The notes under the pieces were generated by a model that was given only the letters and a program-made list of their open reading frames with translations, ran no database searches and was not told where the DNA came from. Position numbers and translations under genes: made by a program. Below are positions 1 through 21,399 of a DNA stretch of 64,000 nucleotides, piece by piece; position 1 is the first letter of the stretch, and each line of letters opens with the position of its first letter. Origin of the DNA: an uncultured Planctomycetia bacterium (GTDB taxonomy: Bacteria; Omnitrophota; Gorgyraeia; VGKH01; JBHPFN01); NCBI GenBank assembly GCA_964406665.1, contig CAYOSQ010000009.1, positions 6,106 to 70,105 on the forward strand, read 5' to 3'.

Positions 1-1118
1 CCATTGGCGCGGAAAGTGGATATTTATATGTAAGAAATGAATATCCGCTTGCAGTTAAACATTCAAGGATAGCGATTGAGCAGGCAAAAAAACTGGGGCT
101 CCTGGGTAAGAATATATTAGGGAAGAAATTTTCATTTGATATAAAGATAGCCCGAGGTGGAGGTGCATTCATTTGCGGTGAGTCAAGCGCATTAATGGCA
201 TCTTTAGAAGGAATGGTGGGAGAGCCCAAGCCCAAAGATATTCATACTACAGAAAAAGGATTTTTGGATTTACCAACAAACTTGAATAATGTTGAGACCT
301 GGGCAAATGTCCCCTCAATTATTAATAACGGTGCTTCTTGGTTTGCTTCTAAGGGTACTGCCCAGAGTAAAGGAACAAAGATTTTTGCTCTTACCGGTCA
401 AATAAGAAATACTGGTTTGGTGGAAGTTCCTATGGGAATTAGTTTACGTGAGATTATATATGATATCGGCGGAGGTTCTACTAATGGCAATAGGATAAAA
501 GCTGTTCAGACTGGCGGGCCATCCGGTGGTTGTCTGCCCGAGAAGATGTTTGATTTATCAGTAGACTTTGAAGAATTAGCCCAAGCAGGTTCAATGGTGG
601 GTTCTGGCGGCATGGTAGTAATGGATGATTCAACCTGTATGGTTGATGTAGCAAAATACTTTTTGAAATTTCTCATAGATGAATCATGTGGAAAATGCGT
701 TCCTTGTAGAGTAGGTTTAAGCAGAATGCTTGAGGTGATAAATGATATCTCCGAAGGCAGAGGCACTTTAGAGAAGCTTGAGCTTCTTGAAGATACTGCC
801 GAAACTGTGACCATAGCGTCGTTATGCGCATTGGGTAAAACTGCGCCCAATCCGGTTTTATCTACGATTAAATATTTCCGCAGTGAGTACGAGGCGCATA
901 TAAAGGAAAGGCGTTGTCCTGCTGGAGTATGTAGGGAGCTAATTCATTATTCTATTAACGAAGAAAAATGTAAAGGTTGTACAGCTTGTTTAAAAGCATG
1001 TCCTCACGATGCTATTACCGGAGAAATTAAAAAGGTTCATAAAATTGACGAGAGCAAATGCCACAAGTGTGGTATTTGTAAAGAGGTCTGCAAATTTGAA
1101 GCCATAGAGGTGTTATAA
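1..1118 (+). CDS. NADH-binding NuoF/HndC-like flavoprotein subunit (51-kDa family) with two extra C-terminal 4Fe-4S ferredoxin motifs. The 5' end is truncated by the window edge.
   Basis: The frame is open from position 3, reading [18 protein letters not shown]...[19 protein letters not shown], so the CDS starts upstream of the window. The SLBB region and the N3-cluster motif [10 protein letters not shown] are present. The C-terminus carries [12 protein letters not shown] and [11 protein letters not shown] 4Fe-4S motifs. Confidence 0.8.
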
Positions 1119-1120
1119 AA

Positions 1121-1810
1121 ATGTCAAAATACATAACTCTTACTATCGACGGAGCAAAGGTTAAGGCACTAGAAGGAACAACAGTATTAGATGCAGCGCT
1201 TGATTACGGAATCTGTATTCCGCATTTGTGTCATATGCGGGGGATTACTCCTTTCGGAGGATGTCGATTGTGTATTGTAGAGGTTGTTAAGAATGGAAGG
1301 TCAAAAGTAACTGCTTCTTGTACACTTGAAGTAGAAGAGGGTATGGAAATCTTAGCTCATACCGAAAAGATACTTAAGGCAAGAAAAAATGTTGCAGAGA
1401 TGTTAGTCGCGGAAGCACCGAATTCGCGGGCTATCCAGGATATTGCTGTTAGATGTGGTGTTAAAAATGTAAGATATGCGTTTCGCCATAAAGAGTGTGT
1501 TTTGTGCGGGCGTTGCGTGAGAGTTTGCGATGAACTTTGGCGGTCTAAATCTTTAGGATTTGTCGGCCGTGGCAATGAGCGCCACGTAAGATTGCCGTTT
1601 GACAAAAGACCGGAGTTTTGCAAACAATGCAATAATTGCATAGATGCTTGTCCTATGACGATTACTCCTTGTCCTGGTCCTATGAAAGAGGGCGAAGAAG
1701 CCCTTTGTGGTTTATGTGAATCACAGCTATCTATGGCCAAGGAAATTGAGGATAGTTGTGTAGATTGTAGGCTAGGAGAAGGATTTAATTGCGTTAAAAA
1801 GACCTCTTAA
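1121..1810 (+). CDS. Fe-S protein resembling the NuoG/HndD N-terminus (2Fe-2S plus His-ligated and classical 4Fe-4S clusters)
   Basis: It starts 3 nt after the previous stop, so the two are likely coupled. The N-terminus has a 2Fe-2S fold (ITLTIDG...CH...GGCRLC). HKECVLCGRCVRVC and CKQCNNCIDACP motifs follow. Confidence 0.7.
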   Translation: MSKYITLTIDGAKVKALEGTTVLDAALDYGICIPHLCHMRGITPFGGCRLCIVEVVKNGRSKVTASCTLEVEEGMEILAHTEKILKARKNVAEMLVAEAPNSRAIQDIAVRCGVKNVRYAFRHKECVLCGRCVRVCDELWRSKSLGFVGRGNERHVRLPFDKRPEFCKQCNNCIDACPMTITPCPGPMKEGEEALCGLCESQLSMAKEIEDSCVDCRLGEGFNCVKKTS

Positions 1811-1931
1811 AAAATCTTGACAAAAATTATAATAGTAGTTATAATTTAAACAAATTCTACAGTGTTGTATTTTAAGATTGAACAAAGGCGTTCTTAGTCA
1901 AGGACGTCTTTTGTTTTAGTTTGAGGTTAGA

Positions 1932-2070
1932 CCCGCACCTTTTTGGTATCCAAGGGGATGCTAAAAAGGTGATAAAAAAGTAGATAGATAAAAGGTGCGG
2001 GATTAATTCGCACAAGTGATTTACATCGCTTTCAGCTCAGTAAATCATGTGCTCATTAAATGGAGGAAAA
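1932..2070 (+). promoter_or_regulatory. Structured 5' leader (copy A of a shared nitrogen-gene leader motif). A GC hairpin with two alternative 3' partners is followed by a second hairpin that ends at the RBS.
   Basis: CCCGCACCTTTT (1932-1943) can pair with AAAAGGTG (~1964-1971) or with AAAAGGTGCGGG (1990-2001). The second hairpin is gcacaaGTGATTTAC (2010-2024) pairing with GTAAATCATgtgc (2040-2052). It is followed directly by tcattaaaTGGAGG and the ATG at 2071. Copy B lies at 8377-8540. Confidence 0.5.
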
Positions 2071-3657
2071 ATGAATCTGCAAAGACCAAATGCAAATGAT
2101 GTAACACAGACAGCGAATCGATCCAGGAATATTGCTCCTACTTCAGGACTTTGTACTCGCTGTATCGATGGTTGTCGCGGTAACTGTGAAGTATTCAAAG
2201 CTAGTTTTCGTGGCCGAGAGGTAATTTATCCAGGGCCGTTTGGAGAAATAACTGCCGGAGGAGATAAAGATTATCCGGTTGATTATTCGCATCTTAATAT
2301 TTTAGGTTATGCTATGGGAGCAAAGGGACTTCCTAAAGGAGTTAAAGGTGATCCTGATACTGCTATATTTCCTAAAGTAGATACTGAGACTGAATATGGT
2401 TGGAAAGATAAAGTAAAAATGGCAATTCCTGCATTTACCGGCGCTTTAGGTTCTACTGAAATCGCTAGAAAGAACTGGGAACATTTTGCCATCGGTGCTG
2501 CTATTTCGGGCGTAACGCTTGTCTGCGGAGAGAATGTCTGTGGTATAGATCCTGCATTAGAATTGGATTCTAAGGGAATGATTAAAAAAGCACCTGATAT
2601 GGATAGAAGGATTGAGACCTACCGTAAGTTTCACCAAGGATACGGAGAAATTCTTGTTCAGATGAATGTTGAAGATACTAGGCTTGGTGTTGCTGAGTAT
2701 GTTAGTAAAAAGCATAAGCTAAAGACTATCGAGCTTAAGTGGGGCCAAGGAGCAAAATGTATCGGAGGAGAAATTAAAGTTAAATCTTTAGAGAGAGCGT
2801 TGGAACTCAAAAAACGCGGATACATTGTAACACCTGATCCTACGCTTAAATCAGTTAAGCAGGCGTATAAGGCAGGAGCAATTAAAGAGTTCGAACGTCA
2901 TTCTCGCCTAGGGTTTGTTACTGAGGAAGATTTCTTCAAGGAAATTAAGCGTTTAAGAAATTTAGGTTTTGAGCGCATTACATTAAAGACCGGCGCCTAT
3001 CCTATGAGAGAATTGGCAATGGCGATTAAGTGGAGTGCTGAAGCTAAGATCGACCTTCTAACCATTGACGGTGCTCCGGGTGGAACAGGCATGAGTCCAT
3101 GGCGCATGATGGAAGAATGGGGACTTCCTACGTTCTATCTTCAGTCTTTAACTCATGAAATCTGTGAGAAGCTATCCAAAAAAGGTGTGAAGCTTCCTGA
3201 TATTGCTATTGCAGGAGGATTTTCTACCGAGGATCATATCTTCAAAGTATTATCAATGGGTGCTCCATATGTTAAATCTGTATGTATGGGGAGAGCCTTT
3301 ATGATTCCTGGTATGGTTGGTAAGAATATTGGATACTGGATTGAAGGAAAAGATCTTCCTAATACAGTTTCTCGTTTTGGTAAAAAACCAGAAGAGATCT
3401 TTGTTTGTTACAAAGAGCTTGAAGAGAAATACGGTAAGAGAATAAAAGAGATTCCTTTAGGTGCTATAGGAATTTATAGTTTCTCTCAGAAGTTAAGAGT
3501 AGGTCTGCAGCAGTTAATGGCAGGAACGAGAAACTTTAGTCTTCCGTCTATTTCTCGTAAAGATGTTGCCTGTCTTACCCAAGAGGCAGCTAAGATCTCT
3601 GGCATTCCTTATATTATGGATGCATATCGAGAAGAAGCAAATAAGGTATTGAAGTAA
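2071..3657 (+). CDS. Glutamate synthase family protein (archaeal-type GltB domain 2, FMN/Fe-S catalytic domain, COG0069-like)
   Basis: The N-terminal Cys cluster CTRCIDGCRGNCEV is followed by a GltB FMN-domain-like sequence. I prefer the ATG at 2071, which has a GGAGG RBS, over the track start at 2047, which lies inside the leader hairpin. Confidence 0.7.
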   Translation: MNLQRPNANDVTQTANRSRNIAPTSGLCTRCIDGCRGNCEVFKASFRGREVIYPGPFGEITAGGDKDYPVDYSHLNILGYAMGAKGLPKGVKGDPDTAIFPKVDTETEYGWKDKVKMAIPAFTGALGSTEIARKNWEHFAIGAAISGVTLVCGENVCGIDPALELDSKGMIKKAPDMDRRIETYRKFHQGYGEILVQMNVEDTRLGVAEYVSKKHKLKTIELKWGQGAKCIGGEIKVKSLERALELKKRGYIVTPDPTLKSVKQAYKAGAIKEFERHSRLGFVTEEDFFKEIKRLRNLGFERITLKTGAYPMRELAMAIKWSAEAKIDLLTIDGAPGGTGMSPWRMMEEWGLPTFYLQSLTHEICEKLSKKGVKLPDIAIAGGFSTEDHIFKVLSMGAPYVKSVCMGRAFMIPGMVGKNIGYWIEGKDLPNTVSRFGKKPEEIFVCYKELEEKYGKRIKEIPLGAIGIYSFSQKLRVGLQQLMAGTRNFSLPSISRKDVACLTQEAAKISGIPYIMDAYREEANKVLK

Positions 3658-3690
3658 GAAAAGACAAGAAGAAATTCTTGTGTGGTTTAT

Positions 3691-3730
3691 AAAAGCGGCG
3701 TCCGCCAAAATGGCAGACGCCGCTTTAATT
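3691..3730. terminator. Bidirectional Rho-independent terminator between convergent genes
   Basis: The sequence is aaaaGCGGCGTCcGCCaaaaTGGCaGACGCCGCtttaatt. A GC-rich stem is flanked by an A-run upstream and a T-run downstream. Confidence 0.7.
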
Positions 3731-3809
3731 TACAACCAGTCACTCGGGACTGTTAGCGATAGCAACCCTTTAGGGCTTCGCTGCCCCTCGCCTTGCTCGG
3801 GACTGCTTA

Positions 3810-5336
3810 TTAGAGTAGGGGAAGGTATTTCTTTATTTCATGCTGCGTGATCTGGATACGATATTCTTCCCATTCCCGCTTTTTGTTAAACAGAAATCTA
3901 CTGAATATATGTTCTCCTAAGGCATCTTTAACGAATGAACTTTTTTCCGTTTCAAGAATTGCCTCGAAAAGGTTTCCCGGTAGAGATGTCAGACCACGGC
4001 GCTCGCGTTCTTCCATTGCCATATTATAGATATTCGGCTCGACAGGAGCAGGGATGGCATATTTTTTCTCTATGCCTTCTAAGCCCGCTGCTAACATAAC
4101 CGCAAATGCTAAATACGGGTTGCAAGCAGGATCTGGACAACGTAGTTCTACGCGTGTTGCTTTTTCATTTCCCATGCGATACAAAGGGACTCTCAAAAGT
4201 GCAGTCCTGTTTCTCTGTGCCCAGGATGCATAAACCGGAGCTTCGTATCCTGAGACAAGTCTTTTATAAGAGTTTACCCACTGCGCAGTAAGAGAACATA
4301 TTTCACGTGCATGCTTTAATTGTCCGGCAATAAAACGCTTTGCAATAGGAGATAAGTGGTGCTTGTCTTTCTTATCAAAGAAAGCATTTTTGCTACCTTT
4401 AAACAAAGACTGATGTACGTGCATTCCTGAACCATTAACACCAAACATCGGCTTAGGCATAAAGGTAGCATAGACGCCTGCTTGCTGGGCGATTTCTTTA
4501 ATAACATATTTGGATGTAATCACATTGTCTGCAGCAGAAAGCGCATCGGAATATTTTGGATCAATCTCATGTTGAGAAGGGGCTACCTCATGATGGCTGG
4601 CTTCCATCGATACACCCATTTCTTCTAGTACCCGTATAGTCTTATTTCGAAGCGTATTGGCCAAGTCGTTGGGAATTAACTCAAAATATGAACCTTCATC
4701 AATAATCTCAGGTTTATGCGCAGACTTAAAATAGAAGTACTCAATCTCAGCGCCTACAAAAAATGTAAGACCATATTTATTCGCACGTGCCATTGCTCGT
4801 TTTAAGACGTAGCGAGGATCACCTACGTATGCACTTCTATCAGGGTTTAAGATATCGCAGAAAATGCGTGCTATAGGGTAATCACCTTTAGTCCAAGGGA
4901 GTATCTTAAAGGTAGTAGGATCGGGTTGAGCGATTATGTCGCTTTCCTCAGCTTCTGCAAAACCGGTAACTGAAGAACCATCAAAACCTTTACCATGCTC
5001 CAGAGCTTCTTTAAGTTCACCAGGGGTTATGGAAACACACTTTAAAATACCTAAAATATCCACGAACCACAGCTGAATGGTGCGAATCTTATTGTGTTCG
5101 ACCTTAGCTAGGATATCGCGTGCAATACGTTTCTTAGATGAAGTAAGCGCTGGGTTTTCAGCGCGCCTTGCTGCTTGAGATTTACGTTTAGGCAAAAGCG
5201 CATCCTTAGGGATTATGTACTGTCTGCCTGCTCGCTCAGCAGGGAGGGTGCCGTGTTTGATTTTATCGTTCACTGCTTGTCTAGAAATTCCTAAAAGCTT
5301 CGCTGCTTCTGTTGGACTTAAATATTCTTTATTCAT
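3810..5336 (-). CDS. Glutamine synthetase paralog (GSI-alpha-like catalytic domain) fused to an N-terminal excisionase/MerR-superfamily helix-turn-helix domain
   Basis: The N-terminus MNKEYLSPTEAAKLLGISRQAVNDKIKHGTLPAERAGRQYIIPKDAL is an HTH_17-type DNA-binding domain. A complete GS domain follows: DGSS, NGSGMHVHQS, NPY and SWAQRNRTALLRVP motifs, and an NIYNM adenylylation-loop-like segment. It is closely paralogous to the glnA at 8547. I prefer the start at 5336, which has an AAGGAGGT SD, over the track start at 5381. Confidence 0.8.
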   Translation of the reverse strand: MNKEYLSPTEAAKLLGISRQAVNDKIKHGTLPAERAGRQYIIPKDALLPKRKSQAARRAENPALTSSKKRIARDILAKVEHNKIRTIQLWFVDILGILKCVSITPGELKEALEHGKGFDGSSVTGFAEAEESDIIAQPDPTTFKILPWTKGDYPIARIFCDILNPDRSAYVGDPRYVLKRAMARANKYGLTFFVGAEIEYFYFKSAHKPEIIDEGSYFELIPNDLANTLRNKTIRVLEEMGVSMEASHHEVAPSQHEIDPKYSDALSAADNVITSKYVIKEIAQQAGVYATFMPKPMFGVNGSGMHVHQSLFKGSKNAFFDKKDKHHLSPIAKRFIAGQLKHAREICSLTAQWVNSYKRLVSGYEAPVYASWAQRNRTALLRVPLYRMGNEKATRVELRCPDPACNPYLAFAVMLAAGLEGIEKKYAIPAPVEPNIYNMAMEERERRGLTSLPGNLFEAILETEKSSFVKDALGEHIFSRFLFNKKREWEEYRIQITQHEIKKYLPLL

Positions 5337-5339
5337 GTC

Positions 5340-5425
5340 GTACCTCCTTGTCAATTGACAAGTATACCATAAACTTGTCATTTGTCAAGTAAAATCTTTT
5401 TTTACAAAAAAACTTGACAAAATGG
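5340..5425 (-). promoter_or_regulatory. Sigma70-type promoter overlapped by three inverted-repeat operator candidates built from TTGTCAA/TTGACAA half-sites
   Basis: Read in gene orientation the region is TTTGTCAAGT-(19)-ACTTGACAAA, then TGACAAGT-N9-ACTTGTCA, then the perfect palindrome CTTGTCAATTGACAAG just before the SD. TTGACA-16-TATACT promoter hexamers are embedded in the dyads. Confidence 0.6.
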
Positions 5426-5444
5426 CCAGATATGTTATATTTAA

Positions 5445-5501
5445 CATGACGATGGAAGTCAAAGAGGCAATGTAGCCCCAATGTAATGGGGCAATTTTTT
5501 T
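5445..5501 (+). ncRNA. Candidate short transcript (sRNA or leader) divergent from the HTH-GS promoter
   Basis: A divergent TTGACA (5413-5418)-17-TATATT promoter is followed ~55 nt later by the clean intrinsic terminator GCCCCAatgtaaTGGGGCaattttttta (5475-5501). There is no credible ORF between them. Confidence 0.25.
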
Positions 5502-5564
5502 AGACAAAGATGTCCTGATTGAGATTTAAAGAATCTCGATGAGGATTTTTTTATTTTTTTGAAC

Positions 5565-5689
5565 GAAGACGTTCTTAATGACCTAAGAAAGGTTGGAGAA
5601 CGTCTTTTTTTTAGATTGTGACACAACTTACGTAAGCGTAAACGAGACGTAAGTTGTAAGTCACAAGCAACCCCGGACAAAGTCCGGGG
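5565..5689 (+). promoter_or_regulatory. Cluster of three hairpins upstream of the amtB-associated operon. The first is terminator-like.
   Basis: AAGACGTTCT...AGAACGTCTTtttttttt lies at 5565-5612. ACAACTTACGT...ACGTAAGTTGT lies at 5623-5657. CCCCGGACaaaGTCCGGGG lies at 5671-5689. Confidence 0.4.
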
Positions 5690-5716
5690 AAGGATAAGAA
5701 TAAAAAGGAGAAAATA

Positions 5717-6514
5717 ATGAGAAGATCAAAAATAAATTTTATTGTTTTAGCAATAGTTGTTTCAGTGTTTCTTGCTCTTCCTATATATGCTGTTGAAGTA
5801 AATGATCAGGAAGTAAATATTTCTGTTTCGCAAGTTTTTGTTTCAAGATATATCTGGCGAGGGCAGGATCTTTATGCACAAAATGATGCAGCTTATCAAC
5901 CCAGTATTGATATATCTGCTCCCGGGTTTTTATTTGGGACAGATGTAGGTTTGAATATCTGGGGGTCGTTTCCGTTGTCAGATGGCCACGAAGACGGCGA
6001 AGAGCTTGATTATACCTTGAGTTTTTCCAAAGATTTCTTTGATGGCCTGGTAAGTATATCAGAGGGTTACACCTATTTTGACTATCCTAATACATCAGAT
6101 ACTGCAGATGTGAGTGAACCTTGGGTAAACATTACGCTTAATGAGATTCCTAAACTTCCAATTCCCATTTCAATGTCAGTGTTTATGGGATATGATTTTG
6201 CAGCAGCTTCAGGTGGGCCTGATGAGGGCTGGTATTATTCCTGGGGTTTTGCTGGGGATATTGATTTACCTGAGTGGGAAATCTTCCAGGAAGATCAAGT
6301 AGTCTCTTGTAGTATTACTAATTGGGGCAATGACGGTGTTGCTGACCTTAAGCCCAGCACACTTTATGCAACTGATTTTTCGTTTTCAACCTCATATGCA
6401 TTTGGTGATATTAGTGTATCTCCTAGCTTAAATTATACTATGAACCATGAGGAAGCGATCAATTCAGGGGATAGTGAAATTTGGACCGGGATAGAAATCA
6501 GTTATGTATTCTAA
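5717..6514 (+). CDS. Exported hypothetical protein, possibly an outer-membrane beta-barrel, upstream of amtB
   Basis: There is an AAGGAG RBS. The signal peptide is MRRSKINFIVLAIVVSVFLALPIYA. The protein is rich in aromatic/Gly beta-strand-like segments and ends in a C-terminal Phe (..ISYVF). Confidence 0.5.
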   Translation: MRRSKINFIVLAIVVSVFLALPIYAVEVNDQEVNISVSQVFVSRYIWRGQDLYAQNDAAYQPSIDISAPGFLFGTDVGLNIWGSFPLSDGHEDGEELDYTLSFSKDFFDGLVSISEGYTYFDYPNTSDTADVSEPWVNITLNEIPKLPIPISMSVFMGYDFAAASGGPDEGWYYSWGFAGDIDLPEWEIFQEDQVVSCSITNWGNDGVADLKPSTLYATDFSFSTSYAFGDISVSPSLNYTMNHEEAINSGDSEIWTGIEISYVF

Positions 6515-8546: not shown

Positions 8547-9884
8547 ATGGCTAAACAATTAACAAAGAAACAAAAGATTTTAAAGTTAGTAAAAGAAAAA
8601 GATGTAAAATTTATCAGGTTATGGTTTACGGATGTTCTTGGACAGGTTAAGAGTTTCTCAATTACCGATAGCGAATTGGAAAATGCGCTAGAAAGCGGCA
8701 TGGGCTTTGATGGTTCTTCAATTACAGGCTATCAGGATATTGAAGAGTCGGATATGATTGCTATGCCTGATCCTGATACCTTTGCGATTCTTCCCTGGAG
8801 GCCAAAGGAAAAGGCAGTGGCGCGTATGATCTGTGATGTGTTAACTCCTGATAGAAAGCCTTACGAAGGAGATCCGCGTTATGTATTAAAGAGAGCTTTA
8901 GAGCGGGCTAAAAAAATGGGATATGATCATTTCTACCTAGGGCCGGAGCTGGAGTTTTTCTATTTTAAAAAGGACGATGGTATTGAGATATTGGATAAGG
9001 GTGGATATTTTGATCTAACTACTCTCGATGTTGCCAGTGATCTAAGACGTGAGACTGTTTTAGCACTTGAGCAGATGGGAATTAATATTGAATATTCTCA
9101 TCACGAGGTTGCACCTTCACAGCATGAAGTAGATATGCGCTATAAAGATGCCTTGATTATGGCTGACAGCGTAATTACTTACAGGGTTGTGGTTAAAGAG
9201 ATCGCTAGTAAGTTCGGTGTGTATGCTACTTTTATGCCAAAGCCAATCTTCGGAGAGAACGGTTCAGGCATGCATGTACATCAGTCACTTTTTAAGGGAT
9301 CAAGGAATGCATTCTTTGATGTAAAGTCAAAAGACTTTTTATCAGACACAGCACGCAGATATATTGCAGGTCTCCTAAAGCATTCAAAAGAGATTTGTTC
9401 TATTTTTGCTCAGACAACTAACTCTTATAAGAGATTAGTTCCTGGATACGAGGCACCAGTTTACATTGCCTGGAGCCGTAGAAACAGAAGTGCGTTGGTC
9501 AGAGTTCCTCTGTATCATCCGGGACAAGAGAAGGCAACACGCTGTGAGTTTAGAGCCTGTGATCCGGCTTGTAATCCGTATCTTACCTTTGCCGCAATGT
9601 TACACGCTGGGTTAGATGGGATTGAAAAAGGATATAAAGTTCCTGCCCCTATGGAGCAGAATCTTTATCACTTAAGCGATACCGAGAGAAAGAAAAAAGG
9701 TATCCAGACATTGCCGGATAGCTTGGGACATGCAATTTCAATGACTGAGGAAAGTAATCTTGTAAGAAAAACATTGGGAGATCATATATTTCCTAGGTTT
9801 GTTGAGTTAAAGAAAAAAGAATGGGATGAATACAGAATTCAGGTTCCGCAGCATGAGCTTGATAAATATCTTTCTATTTTGTAA
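8547..9884 (+). CDS. glnA: Glutamine synthetase, type I-alpha-like (445 aa)
   Basis: The catalytic motifs are complete: GFDGSS, KPIFGENGSGMHVHQS, NPY and AWSRRNRSALVRVP. It has a GGAGG RBS. Confidence 0.9.
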   Translation: MAKQLTKKQKILKLVKEKDVKFIRLWFTDVLGQVKSFSITDSELENALESGMGFDGSSITGYQDIEESDMIAMPDPDTFAILPWRPKEKAVARMICDVLTPDRKPYEGDPRYVLKRALERAKKMGYDHFYLGPELEFFYFKKDDGIEILDKGGYFDLTTLDVASDLRRETVLALEQMGINIEYSHHEVAPSQHEVDMRYKDALIMADSVITYRVVVKEIASKFGVYATFMPKPIFGENGSGMHVHQSLFKGSRNAFFDVKSKDFLSDTARRYIAGLLKHSKEICSIFAQTTNSYKRLVPGYEAPVYIAWSRRNRSALVRVPLYHPGQEKATRCEFRACDPACNPYLTFAAMLHAGLDGIEKGYKVPAPMEQNLYHLSDTERKKKGIQTLPDSLGHAISMTEESNLVRKTLGDHIFPRFVELKKKEWDEYRIQVPQHELDKYLSIL

Positions 9885-9985
9885 TTGATAAGCTCGCGCT
9901 GTGGCTTTTTTAAAAAGCCACAGCGCACTAAGGATTCCTTTACAATTTTTATGCCTGATATTTAGGCGGTTAAGGATTGAGAATA

Positions 9986-10249
9986 ATGCAGAAACATGCT
10001 CAAGAAATGACCAAAGAGTTGGAATTAAAAACAGCAATTGACAATATTGATGATTTTTTCTTAAAGAGTAAGCAGAAGGAGTTGTATAAATTTATTATCG
10101 AGACAGTTGAGAAGCCGCTTATTGAAAGGACACTTGAGAGAACATATGGTAATCAGATTAAAGCAGCGAAACTTTTAGGAATAAACAGAAATACCTTGCG
10201 CGATAAGATTAAAAGGCTCAAAATAGATGTTAATAAATGGAAGCTTTAA
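9986..10249 (+). CDS. Fis-family DNA-binding protein (stand-alone Fis-type HTH)
   Basis: [46 protein letters not shown] closely parallels the C-terminal half of Fis and the NtrC HTH. I prefer the ATG at 9986, which has an AAGGA RBS. Confidence 0.65.
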
Positions 10250-19019: not shown

Positions 19020-19871
19020 ATGGAAAACAGCGATAAACAGAAAGAGCAGATAGAAAATGAAATTAATAAGGCATTGCAATCTGGTGTCGGTCCAAAAGCT
19101 GCTAGAATAGCTTTGGCATTTTTAAGCGGTTTAGTTCCTGGAGTAGGAGGAGTTTTTGGTGCTGGAGCAGGGGCGTGGTCAGAATCAGAGCAGGAGAGAA
19201 TCAATAAAATATTCGCCTCTTGGTTAAAGCTTCAAGAAGATGAGATAAAAGAGATTGGTATTACGTTAATGGAAGTTATGATGCGAATTGATAAAGATGA
19301 TGAAAGAATTCAAGAAAGAATACAAAGCCCAGAATATTTGAAATTAATAAAGAAATGCTTCAGGGATTGGAGTGCGGCAGAAAGTGAAGAAAAAAGAATT
19401 CTAATTAGAAATCTTCTATGTAATGCCGCAGGCGGAGAGAAAATATGTGGGGATGACATTATTCGGATGTTCATTGAATGGATAGGCCGTTATACAGAGA
19501 AGCATTTCTTGATTGTAAAGGAAATATATAAAAATGAAGGTATAACTAGGTTAGGAATATGGCAGAACTTATATGGTGAACCAGAAAGGGAAGATTCTCC
19601 AGAGGCTGATTTGTATAAAACGCTGATGCATGATTTAAGTGTCGGACATGTAATAAGGCAACATAGAGATAAAGACTACATGGGAAATTTCTTGAAGAAA
19701 GCAAAACAGAGAAGTTCGGGCTCTAGAATGAAATCAGCATTTGATGATGAGGAAGAGTATGAATTGACAGGGCTAGGTAAATGGTTTATTCATTATACTA
19801 TGAACGAGATGATTCCTCGCATAACTAATAATGAGCAGCCTTCGAATGAAAAAAAGGAGGAAAATAATTGA
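19020..19871 (+). CDS. Hypothetical protein with an N-terminal Gly-zipper-like hydrophobic segment
   Basis: AARIALAFLSGLVPGVGGVFGAGAGAW is followed by a charged, helical remainder. No family was recognised. It starts 20 nt after the hydrolase gene. Confidence 0.5.
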   Translation: MENSDKQKEQIENEINKALQSGVGPKAARIALAFLSGLVPGVGGVFGAGAGAWSESEQERINKIFASWLKLQEDEIKEIGITLMEVMMRIDKDDERIQERIQSPEYLKLIKKCFRDWSAAESEEKRILIRNLLCNAAGGEKICGDDIIRMFIEWIGRYTEKHFLIVKEIYKNEGITRLGIWQNLYGEPEREDSPEADLYKTLMHDLSVGHVIRQHRDKDYMGNFLKKAKQRSSGSRMKSAFDDEEEYELTGLGKWFIHYTMNEMIPRITNNEQPSNEKKEENN

Positions 19872-20569
19872 CTAGAAAAGTTATACTCAAATCACAAGCT
19901 AACCAAGTCCTTGAGATAATTAAAAAATTTGGTTTAATTCCTGCAGAGTTTAAATGGTTTGAAAAAACAACCAAGCTTAATAGTACAAAGGACGTTGTTT
20001 CTTCGCTTGTGCATTTACCAACGGGATACTATTTTTTGTTTGAATATGATAGAGATGGAAAACATTGGTCTGAGTATTCGCCTGGGGGATCTGTAGCTGT
20101 GGTAACATTAAAATACACTGCAAGCTGGGGAGTGCAATTAGGTAATGTTATAGATTGGGCTCAGTCGTTAAAACGTGAAGTTGAATCTCCAAATTTGTGG
20201 GATGCGATATCTCAGGAAAGGCGGATACTGGAGGTTGTCAATGAACCAATTTTTTATAATGAGCTCTTTAATGTTGAAGAGCAGAAAAAGATAAATGCAA
20301 ATTTAGAAGAAATAAAACAATACTTATTAACGACGACGGATTTATCTAAAGAGCAAGTTCAATTAGTAGATAAGCAGTTTGATTATTTTAAGAATTCTTT
20401 GCAAAGGATTGGGCGAAAAGATTGGTTAATGATGTTTACTGGATTTTTAGTTAGCAAAATTCTTACACTTGGGTTACAATCTGATACTGCTAAAGAATTA
20501 TTTAGATTTACTTCAAATGCTTTAAGTTGGCTGATTGCAAAAGCTGATACTTTACATTTAGGAGGGTAA
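19868..20569 (+). CDS. Hypothetical protein, translationally coupled to the upstream gene
   Basis: TTGA start/stop overlap with 19020..19871. No recognisable motifs. Confidence 0.45.
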   Translation: MTRKVILKSQANQVLEIIKKFGLIPAEFKWFEKTTKLNSTKDVVSSLVHLPTGYYFLFEYDRDGKHWSEYSPGGSVAVVTLKYTASWGVQLGNVIDWAQSLKREVESPNLWDAISQERRILEVVNEPIFYNELFNVEEQKKINANLEEIKQYLLTTTDLSKEQVQLVDKQFDYFKNSLQRIGRKDWLMMFTGFLVSKILTLGLQSDTAKELFRFTSNALSWLIAKADTLHLGG

Positions 20570-20615
20570 AAGATAGAATTCCGGATAGAAAACTAAGAAG
20601 CAAAGCTAAGCAAAG

Positions 20616-20761
20616 CTTAGGACCGGTTCTCGTTAAGTATTTATCATATAAAGAGTTTTGAATAAATCCCTGAAGGGACGGCTTCGCTCGGTGTCACTTA
20701 AGGAACATTTTAGTAGCAAGTTAATGGTATGGTAGTAGTTAGATAGATCCGGTCCTTTAAG
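20616..20761. repeat. Imperfect inverted repeat pair flanking ~115 bp (MITE-like or large hairpin) at the distal end of the accessory operon
   Basis: CTTAGGACCGGTTCT (20616-20630) is matched in reverse by AGATCCGGTCCTTTAAG (20745-20761), with 11 of 12 core positions complementary. Confidence 0.35.
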
Positions 20762-20817
20762 TTTTTGCTTTAAGTTTTTATGTGCTTGAAGGTCAAAGAA
20801 AGAAGGAGAAATTTATT

Positions 20818-21399
20818 ATGAGAAAAATATTGTTTTTATTGTCAGTAATTATAATTTTGGTTTTGTCGCATGGCATTGCGCACGCTCAGAGATCTGCGAC
20901 CAATGACGATATGTGGCATCAAAACTTAATTGAAGATTATAAAAAAAGTTTGGTTAACGCCACTACGTGGGATAAGTGGCAAGGTTTTGCCTTTCTAGTA
21001 CAGCCTGAACTTTTTGAAGAAGCAACTCCTGAGGTATTGGCCTTGTTGGATGACCCGGATTTTGAGAATGTCATTTACATATATTTAAGAGAGCTAACCC
21101 AGTCGCAAGAAATACCGTTAGGAGAAAAGAAAGCGGTTATCCTTCGTGCACTAGATGCCTATGAACAAGATATCTTGTCACAAACACCCGAGGCGCTGAT
21201 AGATGAATGGCATACCATATATAAAGACAAAGGTGTCGACAGTCAAATGGGACGTATTACAACAATTTTCTATATTAGAAGTGATGCTGATGCGTTTAAG
21301 CCACTCGTGGAAGAATCGCAAACTATTCCTGAATTTAGCGAAGCTGCTAATGAAATCTTGAGCGGATGGGATGCGTTAACGGAGCATATGAAGCGTTGA
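20818..21399 (+). CDS. Exported hypothetical protein
   Basis: There is an AAGGAG RBS. The signal peptide is MRKILFLLSVIIILVLSHGIAHA. The upstream extension to 20782 is rejected. Confidence 0.5.
   Translation: MRKILFLLSVIIILVLSHGIAHAQRSATNDDMWHQNLIEDYKKSLVNATTWDKWQGFAFLVQPELFEEATPEVLALLDDPDFENVIYIYLRELTQSQEIPLGEKKAVILRALDAYEQDILSQTPEALIDEWHTIYKDKGVDSQMGRITTIFYIRSDADAFKPLVEESQTIPEFSEAANEILSGWDALTEHMKR

Follow-up and report, generated by a model that had tools for sequence, protein, structure and literature searches.

An intact type I-alpha glutamine synthetase (GS) and a DNA-binding domain are joined in one polypeptide encoded in the window, i.e., the whole 64-kb stretch of DNA analyzed here. 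We consider it probable (about three chances in four) that this protein is a bifunctional "trigger enzyme", an active I-alpha GS with a tethered winged helix that represses its own gene, the GS oligomer giving multivalency. Palindromes matching such a role lie over its own promoter, and therefore the enzyme most likely shuts off expression of the gene that encodes it. An earlier note, made from the sequence of the window, had proposed that a GS is fused here to a helix-turn-helix (HTH) domain. The fusion proved to be genuine and conserved, both parts being found by HMM searches above curated cut-offs. The author of that note knew of no GS with a fused DNA-binding domain, and we also found no description of a natural fusion of this kind in the literature searched.

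The coding sequence occupies positions 3810–5336 of the minus strand and encodes 508 amino acids plus a stop codon, its translation containing no internal stops. Translation starts at the ATG at 5336–5334, with the Shine-Dalgarno sequence GGAGG at 5347–5343, read directly from the minus strand 6 nt before the ATG; the ATG of the longest open reading frame, at 5381, was rejected in favor of this start. An HTH_17/excisionase-type winged helix (residues 1–47; 5196–5336, minus strand) is followed by a linker (residues ~48–74; 5115–5195, minus strand) and a complete type I-alpha GS (residues 75–508; 3813–5114, minus strand). Pfam detected HTH_17 (PF12728) at residues 5–47 with 37.8 bits (cut-off 27), Gln-synt_N (PF03951) at residues 84–165 with 88 bits and Gln-synt_C (PF00120) at residues 172–504 with 419.5 bits. 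The NCBIfam models gave 498.8 bits for GlnA (TIGR00653; cut-off 429.15) and 40.2 bits for the "excise" domain (TIGR01764; cut-off 28.8). The DNA-binding domain of about 75 residues postulated at the N-terminus is thus present, but its folded part comprises only ~47 residues, the remaining ~27 belonging to the linker.

At least 120 protein clusters (70–100% identity), drawn from NCBI, JGI, ENA and Logan and belonging mostly to Candidatus Omnitrophota, match the fusion over its full length, and in 111 of them the precomputed domain set is HTH_17 plus GS. An identical fusion protein was found on nine contigs from several JGI and ENA samples, and in a neighbor-joining tree the fused proteins form one monophyletic clade. 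With this survey of GS homologs and their phylogeny, the possibility that the fusion is an artefact of assembly, frameshift or gene calling, which the earlier note had itself raised, becomes negligible: the same architecture recurs end to end in independent clusters, and a conserved Shine-Dalgarno sequence and ATG immediately precede the HTH. What an artefact of this sort looks like is exemplified by a GAF-ANTAR-GS reading frame at locus L021. It was rejected as a second regulator-GS family, since its best 120 homologs are all unfused GS of ~443 residues and NCBI calls the gene itself as 443 residues, and we ascribe it to a single case of read-through or of a stop codon being lost. Likewise, N-terminal extensions of Actinomycetota GS, revealed by tblastn matches beginning at residues 43–57, turned out to be short in-frame non-HTH sequences. 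A search of a representative library with residues 1–83 yielded tandem HTH_17 arrays and short stand-alone proteins and no further fusions of ~500 residues; it is therefore silent on the breadth of the architecture beyond the Omnitrophota clade.

The earlier assignment of the N-terminus to the excisionase/MerR superfamily was borne out by structure prediction. In a separate AlphaFold2 model (pLDDT 87) this domain is a MerR/excisionase-like winged helix with the topology b-a-a-b-b. The best PDB matches in Foldseek were Xis, BldC, RacA, NmlR and SoxR (TM 0.7–0.8), with the Pukovnik Xis as the top fold match, TM values of 0.78–0.81 for Xis and BldC, and probabilities of 0.95–1.0 for NmlR, SoxR and other MerR-family HTH domains; BirA and RbkR were among the weaker fold matches. 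By sequence, HTH_17 was the only HTH family found, no MerR match being obtained in Pfam at E < 0.1. The coiled-coil dimerization helix of MerR proteins is also absent, as are an effector domain and the GS-binding C-tail of GlnR and TnrA: a disordered, variable linker and then the GS come after the HTH. Among 26 fused orthologs R19, Q20, A21, G37, Y40, I41 and I42 are invariant. The recognition helix (approximately residues 19–28, SRQAVNDKIKH, within 5196–5336 of the minus strand) and the wing are thus preserved, whereas the linker differs in both length and sequence. It varies from 17 to 34 residues, is mostly basic, and is rich in Lys and Arg in the protein from the window. The full-length AlphaFold2 model, built with 26 close orthologs as input, has a pLDDT of 47, falling below 50 at residues 49–65, and only its HTH part was trusted; contacts between HTH and GS therefore cannot be read from it.

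The protein shares 60% identity with the canonical GlnA of the same window. Its closest solved relatives are M. mazei GlnA1 structures (8tfb, 8ufj, 8s59; E about 1e-141), and B. subtilis GS (4lnf) is among the other I-alpha relatives. The 15 best solved relatives align end to end, and the identifiable ones among them (M. mazei, B. subtilis and methanogen GS) are I-alpha enzymes; the I-beta structures 2gls and 1f1h align over the C-terminal part only. In addition, the adenylylation motif K-[LIVM]-x5-[LIVMA]-D-[RK]-[DN]-[LI]-Y is lacking, the sequence at its place reading KKYAIPAPVEPNIY. Residues D119, S122, E197, E199, E250, E257, H306, H308, R359, E365, R377, R382, E397 and R399 are invariant in the 26 fused orthologs, and in the alignment with M. 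mazei GlnA1 the metal ligands coincide. The metal ligands and substrate residues expected of such an enzyme are, in S. typhimurium numbering, E129/E131/E212/E220/H269/E357, D50', S53', R321, E327, R339, R344 and R359. The description of the protein as a GSI-alpha-like enzyme with intact catalytic motifs can accordingly be retained, and judging by these residues the fused GS is apparently active.

The two sensing features best known from GS I-alpha are missing. The arginine of glutamine feedback inhibition, typical of Bacillus-type I-alpha GS (R62 in B. subtilis, R66 in M. mazei), is replaced by Glu128 in all fused proteins checked and in their unfused sisters; this position matters for regulation rather than for catalysis. 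Furthermore, four of the seven residues forming the 2-oxoglutarate site of M. mazei GlnA1 are replaced in the fused GS, while the canonical GlnA445 of the same window retains all seven. T86, Q88, C100, T149 and N231 of the fused protein stand at the positions of GlnA1 F24, R26, S38, R87 and R173, and E128 at that of R66. The loss of the feedback arginine weakens a simple analogy with Bacillus, and, together with the changes in the 2-oxoglutarate site, it leaves metabolite gating without an identified structural basis.

The upstream repeats are best described as two 16-bp dyads of the form CTTKACA-AN-TGTMAAG (7-2-7). Operator O2, the perfect dyad CTTGTCAATTGACAAG at 5347–5362, overlaps the -10 box (last two nucleotides), the predicted +1 (around 5354–5356) and the Shine-Dalgarno sequence (first base); a perfect 16-mer over +1 and the Shine-Dalgarno sequence had already been noted here. 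Operator O1 at 5374–5389 is the dyad CTTGTCATTTGTCAAG (CTTGACAAATGACAAG on the coding strand; ACTTGACAAnTGTAAAG in orthologs) and includes the -35 hexamer, with which it is partly confounded. The two are the sole dyad matches in the 64-kb window. A promoter scan predicts the -35 hexamer TTGACA at 5383–5388 and, after a 16-nt spacer, the extended -10 element TGgTATACT at 5361–5369 (11/12 matches with TG; conserved in orthologs), both on the minus strand; by this sequence the promoter is near-consensus and TG-extended. Three overlapping inverted repeats had previously been described here. The repeats exist, but they are better read as two full operators plus one isolated half-site, ACTTGACAA, at 5412–5420. 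The spacer given as 19 nt measures 21 nt, and the repeat with a 9-nt spacer is merely made up of the inner halves of two adjacent 7-2-7 dyads 27 bp apart. MerR-type operators lie inside an over-long -35/-10 spacer of 19–20 bp and activate by DNA distortion; such a placement was not found at this promoter, where the spacer is 16 nt and the dyads cover the -35 and the -10/+1 regions. Kinship with the TnrA/GlnR pentamers TGTNA/TNACA was considered and judged weak, given the everted orientation, the 2-nt spacing and the use of TGACA in the window.

Of 18 distinct fused loci (69–91% protein identity), 17 carry the dual operator at corresponding places in the promoter, although their intergenic sequences and gene contexts differ; one fused ortholog (L011), with only 146 nt of upstream sequence covered, showed no operator. 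In 253 kb from 16 fused loci there were 30 dyad matches with at most one mismatch, against a mean of 0.85 in shuffled sequence. All 30 lay upstream of the fusion gene, at no more than 280 bp from it, and the rest of these 253 kb gave no match. The operators are positioned relative to the -35 and -10 boxes rather than the start codon, the 5' UTR varying from ~20 to more than 100 nt. The O1–O2 spacing falls into two classes, 26–28 bp and, in L002, L006 and L007, 21 bp, so that operator phasing is not uniform, and three loci (L081–L083) contain a third operator 130–147 bp upstream. In the unfused sister GS genes (L013–L017) the operator is absent, and no HTH_17 reading frame lies nearby. Operator and fused gene strictly co-occur. 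This phylogenetic footprinting, while in silico, strongly backs the autoregulation suggested earlier and points to the dyads as cognate operators overlapping the fusion gene's own promoter. It should be mentioned that covariation between recognition helix and half-site (window-type NDK versus the common IER) was looked for and rejected: since L089, which has the NDK helix, carries one operator of the TGTAAAG type and one of the TGACAAG type, there is no clean correspondence.

It can be hypothesized that self-repression proceeds as follows. The winged helix, lacking a dimerization module of its own, would be held on a flexible tether of 17–34 residues, and GS rings, in the presumed assembly, would have the N-terminal domains projecting from their two outer faces. 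Such an arrangement is compatible with the behavior of a GS bearing MBP at its N-terminus, which still assembles into dodecamers flanked on either outer face by a ring of MBP (PMC4971460). Neighboring pairs of domains would then fill the two halves of each 7-2-7 dyad, the GS oligomer supplying the avidity that we infer for DNA binding by the N-terminal domain. As O1 contains the -35 box and O2 extends from the -10 end across +1, their occupancy would exclude RNA polymerase, and the enzyme would therefore repress its own synthesis. The third upstream operator in some relatives suggests DNA looping by the multivalent oligomer.

Several other readings of the same data have to be weighed against this one. 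The dyads might be bound by another transcription factor, the fused HTH serving elsewhere, for example in RacA-like nucleoid or pole tethering or in an excisionase-like architecture. Although HTH_17 domains do occur in excisionases and architectural proteins such as Xis, BldC and RacA, we regard this as very improbable: operator and HTH co-occur across gene contexts and are both missing from the sister clade, no integrase or mobile-element genes were found around the fusion gene in the window, L081–L083 or L088–L090, and the window contains no strong HTH_17 candidate elsewhere, the only other match being a weak one (E 2.6e-4) to a Fis-type HTH_8 reading frame at 9974–10246. A somewhat better case, still an unlikely one, can be made for a global nitrogen regulator, in which the GS would be mainly a sensor, the HTH would answer to glutamine or ATP and control a larger set of genes (amtB, glnA, gltB and others), and catalysis would be left to the canonical GlnA. 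The canonical glnA does lie ~3 kb away in the window, as previously stated, at 8547–9884, and in three genomes, those of the window, L088 and L089, a second, canonical GS is located within 3–10 kb of the fusion. A divergent promoter on the plus strand, predicted by the promoter scan (TTGACA at 5414–5419, TATATT at 5436–5441), leads towards amtB-glnB-glnA-gltBD, and in the window and in L089, where both promoter and half-site are conserved, the half-site overlaps its -35 box; Rfam gave no family at the gathering threshold for the structured divergent leader or elsewhere in the window. B. subtilis GS offers a precedent as the sensor for GlnR and TnrA (PMC9249791). However, ACTTGACAA cannot be told statistically from an ordinary -35 box plus flanks, and its role as an operator is uncertain. 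Apart from the fusion gene itself, no gene of the 64-kb window (amtB, glnB, glnA and gltB included) was found to be preceded by a full operator, and the same holds for ~230 kb of related loci; the earlier note had suggested looking for further sites near amtB, glnA and gltB. In addition, the feedback arginine and the 2-oxoglutarate site are missing, and in L081–L083 and L090 the fusion gene is flanked by lpxB and housekeeping genes, nitrogen genes being absent from the surroundings. The proposal that this copy is primarily regulatory thus finds no support: its operators are confined to its own promoter in the sequence covered, its catalytic residues are all strictly conserved, and its context in several genomes is a housekeeping one.

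Accepting that the enzyme probably represses its own gene, one can ask what sets the level of repression. A possible, though tentative, answer is plain set-point feedback, with the HTH-GS acting on its strong promoter through concentration alone and so holding constant the amount of a GS paralog that is not regulated allosterically. It agrees with the loss of the known allosteric and feedback residues in the clade before or at the fusion, with the restriction of operators to the gene's own promoter, with a near-consensus promoter that would need damping, and with the housekeeping context in several relatives. On the other side, in the characterized enzyme–repressor fusions PutA, BirA and NadR the ligand state governs DNA binding, a domain tethered to so large an allosteric machine could easily become coupled to it, and the sequence leaves room for ligand control via the active site. 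Tuning of repression by the catalytic or ligand state of the GS, for example by substrate or product occupancy, is the most speculative part of our reading, and its odds against plain concentration feedback are roughly even. In its fullest form, which we put forward with no great confidence, a ligand-gated 12-valent GS ring would itself be the repressor: six tethered winged helices per face would clamp O1 and O2 and, where there is a distal O3, loop the DNA, the catalytic state (turnover or product occupancy) and not the lost 2-oxoglutarate or feedback-arginine sites would determine operator occupancy, and the divergent amtB-glnB-glnA-gltBD promoter would be damped via the half-site in genomes like that of the window. 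If this were true, the ring would represent a one-component nitrogen sensor-effector made from a central assimilation enzyme, and a covalent counterpart of the GS–GlnR/TnrA system.

GS is a textbook case of an elaborately regulated enzyme, and in Firmicutes it also acts as a chaperone for GlnR and TnrA. That circuit could take no simpler form than a natural covalent GS-repressor, and such a protein would directly test the GS ring as an oligomerization scaffold for weakly dimerizing winged helices. To our knowledge, gene regulation in Omnitrophota is largely uncharacterized; the protein, operator and promoter together would provide a concrete, experimentally tractable regulatory element for these uncultured bacteria. 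As a compact, self-contained promoter-operator-repressor module, it is also a candidate part for synthetic biology.

The fusion can be compared with several known systems. With BldC, Xis and RacA the N-terminal domain shares the winged-helix fold and the lack of a MerR coiled-coil helix, and with excisionases also the HTH_17/TIGR01764 signature, but no integrase or mobile element is found nearby. BldC and Xis form cooperative head-to-tail filaments on direct repeats, in contrast to the dyad-symmetric sites described here, and multimerization of the domain is presumably supplied by the fused GS. The best sequence match among solved GS structures, M. mazei GlnA1, whose assembly into dodecamers is triggered by 2-oxoglutarate (PMC11957540), has the same I-alpha architecture and catalytic residues as the fused GS. 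In B. subtilis, feedback-inhibited GS I-alpha acts in trans on the MerR-like winged-helix repressors GlnR and TnrA (PMC9249791). Both there and here a small winged helix of the MerR/excisionase fold, with a weak or absent dimer interface of its own, is linked to a GS I-alpha oligomer, palindromic operators cover the promoter of a GS gene, and the outcome, predicted in our case, is repression of GS synthesis. The two differ in that the link is covalent and N-terminal here, whereas in B. subtilis the C-terminal tail of the regulator docks into the GS pore; the domain belongs to HTH_17 and not to MerR in Pfam; the operator is the 7-2-7 dyad CTTKACA-AN-TGTMAAG instead of TGTNA-N7-TNACA; the residue corresponding to R62 is Glu in the fused clade; and no wider regulon was detected in the window or the ~230 kb of related loci.

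Trigger enzymes include PutA (an RHH domain with proline dehydrogenase), BirA (a winged HTH with biotin ligase), NadR and the archaeal RbkR (a winged HTH with riboflavin kinase), and the literature searched contained no GS among enzymes joined to DNA-binding domains. As in these proteins, an intact metabolic enzyme and an N-terminal DNA-binding domain form one polypeptide, the operators lie over the promoter of the protein's own gene or operon, and regulation, as predicted here, is negative and autogenous. One difference is in size: PutA, BirA, NadR and RbkR are monomers or dimers, whereas the fused GS presumably forms a 12-mer ring, which would therefore carry up to 12 DNA-binding domains on one particle and be the first large-ring enzyme among the few enzyme–repressor fusions such as PutA, BirA and NadR.

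The minus-strand open reading frame ending at 3810 could start as far upstream as 5381. We place the true start of the fusion gene at ATG 5336-5334, because GGAGG precedes it at 5347-5343 and all orthologs begin there, with the N-terminus M-x-x-E/D-Y-L-S/T-P-T. The 508-aa product contains three Pfam domains, HTH_17 (residues 5-47; 37.8 bits, cut-off 27), Gln-synt_N (residues 84-165) and Gln-synt_C (residues 172-504), and matches the NCBIfam GlnA equivalog TIGR00653 (498.8 bits, cut-off 429.15) and the 'excisionase family DNA-binding' domain TIGR01764 (40.2 bits, cut-off 28.8). These scores bear out the earlier note, which described a glutamine synthetase (GS) with an N-terminal HTH_17-type domain; the database label is merely 'glutamine synthetase beta-grasp domain-containing protein'.

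The fusion proved genuine rather than an artefact. In a search of 5.8 billion protein clusters, at least 120 matched the fused protein with 70-100% identity and 99-100% coverage; the precomputed set PF12728 + PF03951 + PF00120 was present in 111 of them, and every named cluster among the matches listed was Candidatus Omnitrophota or Omnitrophica. The identical 508-aa protein was read on nine contigs from several JGI and ENA samples. Full-length fused orthologs were revealed at 12 loci of species-representative genomes (L001-L012), and the GS genes next in similarity (L013-L017, at 68-74% identity) are unfused and begin at residue ~64-70. In a neighbor-joining tree of the GS core all fused proteins form one clade with these unfused genes as sisters, which fits a single acquisition of the HTH domain. 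Within the fused family no variation is seen in the recognition helix and wing (R19, Q20, A21, G37, Y40-I42), and the linker has 17 to 34 residues, no conserved sequence and a usually positive net charge.

A second apparent fusion (698 aa; L021, 26-2119), in which a GAF-ANTAR open reading frame continues in frame without a stop into a 443-aa GS, was rejected: since no homolog is fused and NCBI likewise calls the gene unfused, the probable cause is loss of the stop codon or an error in sequencing. It is noteworthy that the GAF-ANTAR regulator gene there directly abuts glnA.

AF2 modelling of the full-length protein gave a poor result (pLDDT 47, shallow alignment) except for residues 1-47, which were confident. 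A separate model of residues 1-52 (pLDDT 87) has the topology beta-alpha-alpha-beta-beta, and its best PDB matches (TM 0.7-0.8, Foldseek probability about 1.0) are mycobacteriophage Pukovnik Xis, Streptomyces BldC, RacA, the MerR proteins NmlR and SoxR, and the RdfS excisionase. The predicted structure thus supplies the expected DNA-binding fold, a MerR/excisionase-type winged helix that lacks its own dimerisation helix. The closest HTH relatives outside the fusion, found by representative-library search (P0121-P0149), are proteins of about 160-710 aa with 3-8 tandem HTH_17 domains, e.g., P0121 with 7-8 copies in 563 aa.

The nearest solved structures of the GS core are GS I-alpha enzymes, among them M. 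mazei GlnA1 (8tfb, 8ufj, 8s59; E about 1e-141), 7tfa and others, and B. subtilis GS (4lnf). Across 26 aligned orthologs no metal or substrate residue varies, so the catalytic motifs are intact, as first supposed; the GS core appears to be a functional enzyme that is unusual at its regulatory sites. We mapped these sites from M. mazei GlnA1, where 2-oxoglutarate (2-OG) is bound by F24, R26, S38, R87, R172', R173' and S189' and the glutamine-feedback arginine is R66, equal to Bs R62 (PMC11957540). The fused protein has T86, Q88, C100, T149, R230, N231 and S247 at the 2-OG positions and E128 at the arginine position. All fused orthologs checked show these Q, C, E and N changes, and at these positions the unfused sisters are substituted too. 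By its residues, therefore, the fused clade is a catalytically intact GS paralog with neither of the two best-understood I-alpha sensing sites. The canonical GlnA of the window (GlnA445; 8547-9884, plus strand), 60% identical to the fused protein, keeps all seven 2-OG residues (F22, R24, S36, R85, R167, R168, S184) and has Asp where the feedback arginine is expected; this bacterial GS is therefore predicted to be activated by 2-OG in the archaeal manner.

A promoter scan (11/12) placed TTGACA at 5388-5383 and, after a 16-nt spacer, TGgTATACT at 5369-5361. Three inverted repeats had been proposed here; what stands is two 16-bp dyads 27 bp apart at the gene's own promoter, plus one half-site, ACTTGACAA (5412-5420). 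The dyad O1, CTTGACAAATGACAAG in the coding-strand reading (5374-5389), therefore contains the -35 box, and O2, CTTGTCAATTGACAAG (5347-5362), covers the final two -10 bases and the predicted +1 and extends to the SD. The cross-locus comparison is, at the level of sequence, decisive. The arrangement is common to 17 of 18 distinct fused loci (named as carrying it are the window, L001-L010, L012, L081-L083 and L088-L090), despite differing intergenic sequence, 5'UTR length and gene neighbourhood. In each, ACTTGACAAnTGTAAAG lies over the -35 box, and in all except L012 a second dyad lies just after or over the -10 box. L011, with just 146 nt of upstream sequence, is the only fused locus without the motif. 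A position matrix of 30 sites gave the 7-2-7 dyad (A)CTT[G/T]ACA-A-N-TGT[A/C]AAG. In 253 kb from 16 fused loci, all 30 matches with at most one mismatch lie no more than 280 bp upstream of the fusion gene and none elsewhere, against a mean of 0.85 in block shuffles. The unfused sister genes have neither the dyad nor an HTH_17 ORF nearby. L081-L083 carry a third full operator-like dyad 130-147 bp upstream of O1, within the lpxB 3' end (L081 5732, L082 5812, L083 5797). L081 also has an extra perfect palindrome of other spacing, ACTTGACAT-CTTTG-ATGTCAAGT, just before the SD (~5956-5982).

The strong sigma-70-type promoter, the dyads over its -35 box and +1 and their strict co-occurrence with the fused DNA-binding domain support negative autoregulation, the first half of the original proposal. 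The fused protein (HTH-GS) would bind both dyads and lower its own synthesis. Since the HTH domain lacks a dimer interface, pairing and avidity of the winged helices would most obviously come from the GS oligomer. In an engineered construct with MBP fused to the N-terminus of GS, dodecamers still assemble and carry rings of MBP on both outer faces (PMC4971460), so twelve tethered winged helices per particle are sterically plausible; the distal operators suggest DNA looping. Feedback-inhibited GS activates GlnR in Bacillus (PMC9249791), a precedent that argues for metabolite-responsive binding. The absence of both the feedback arginine and the 2-OG site points to the active site as the place through which any sensing would have to run. 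Alternatively, self-repression may be plain set-point feedback for an otherwise unregulated GS paralog.

A primarily regulatory copy controlling amtB, glnA and gltB is not upheld: no full operator was found at other genes in the window or related loci. The fusion gene lies in a nitrogen-assimilation cluster in the window, L088 and L089; in L081-L083 and L090 its surroundings are a housekeeping region with lpxB. Divergent from it in the window are genes for an unknown 265-aa protein, amtB, PII, canonical 445-aa glnA, a 90-aa Fis-type HTH_8 protein, gltB and gltD. The one possible link to them is the half-site 5412-5420, which coincides with the -35 box of the divergent promoter, kept in L089, and is indistinguishable from any ordinary -35 box.

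This divergent promoter is near-consensus (TTGACA-16-TATATT with TG; within 5414-5716, plus strand) and is separated from the unknown-amtB-glnB-glnA-gltBD genes by a 269-nt, extremely structured leader (MFE -98.6 kcal/mol, z = -11.2) without an Rfam match. Several of its five hairpins are followed by U-runs (e.g., 5475-5492 + U7; 5566-5606 + U8), and L089 shares its first ~55 nt, with AGAGGCAATGTAGCCC and the first terminator-like hairpin among them; the leader may act as an attenuator or in antitermination, or be a small RNA. The HTH_8 gene (9977-10249, plus strand), between canonical glnA and gltB, has the same arrangement in L088 (77 aa) and L089 (87 aa) and is a candidate dedicated regulator of the cluster. 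Convergent with the fusion gene (195-3657, plus strand) are genes for NuoF-like Fe-S and 2Fe-2S/4Fe-4S proteins, then a 536-aa protein with the Glu_synthase FMN domain only; this set may be an unusual small glutamate synthase. In L013 a 76% identical relative of the 536-aa protein (3594-5183) is encoded immediately after the unfused sister GS. In L088, a 1.26-Mb Omnitrophota contig, the second GS beside the fusion gene (19474-20985, 503 aa) looks like I-beta type, unlike the I-alpha-like 445-aa GlnA of the window, and the partner GS therefore differs between genomes.

A full-text literature search, including PMC9249791 and the January 2025 review PMC11800386, found no naturally occurring GS to which a DNA-binding domain is fused, in agreement with the earlier note. 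HTH-GS is not a member of the MerR family: the MerR signature and the coiled coil are missing, the promoter spacer is 16 nt, and the operators cover the -35 box and +1; nor is it functionally an excisionase, since mobile-element context is absent. In function it is similar to the enzyme-repressor fusions PutA, BirA, NadR and RbkR, and in concept it is a covalent version of GS-GlnR/TnrA.
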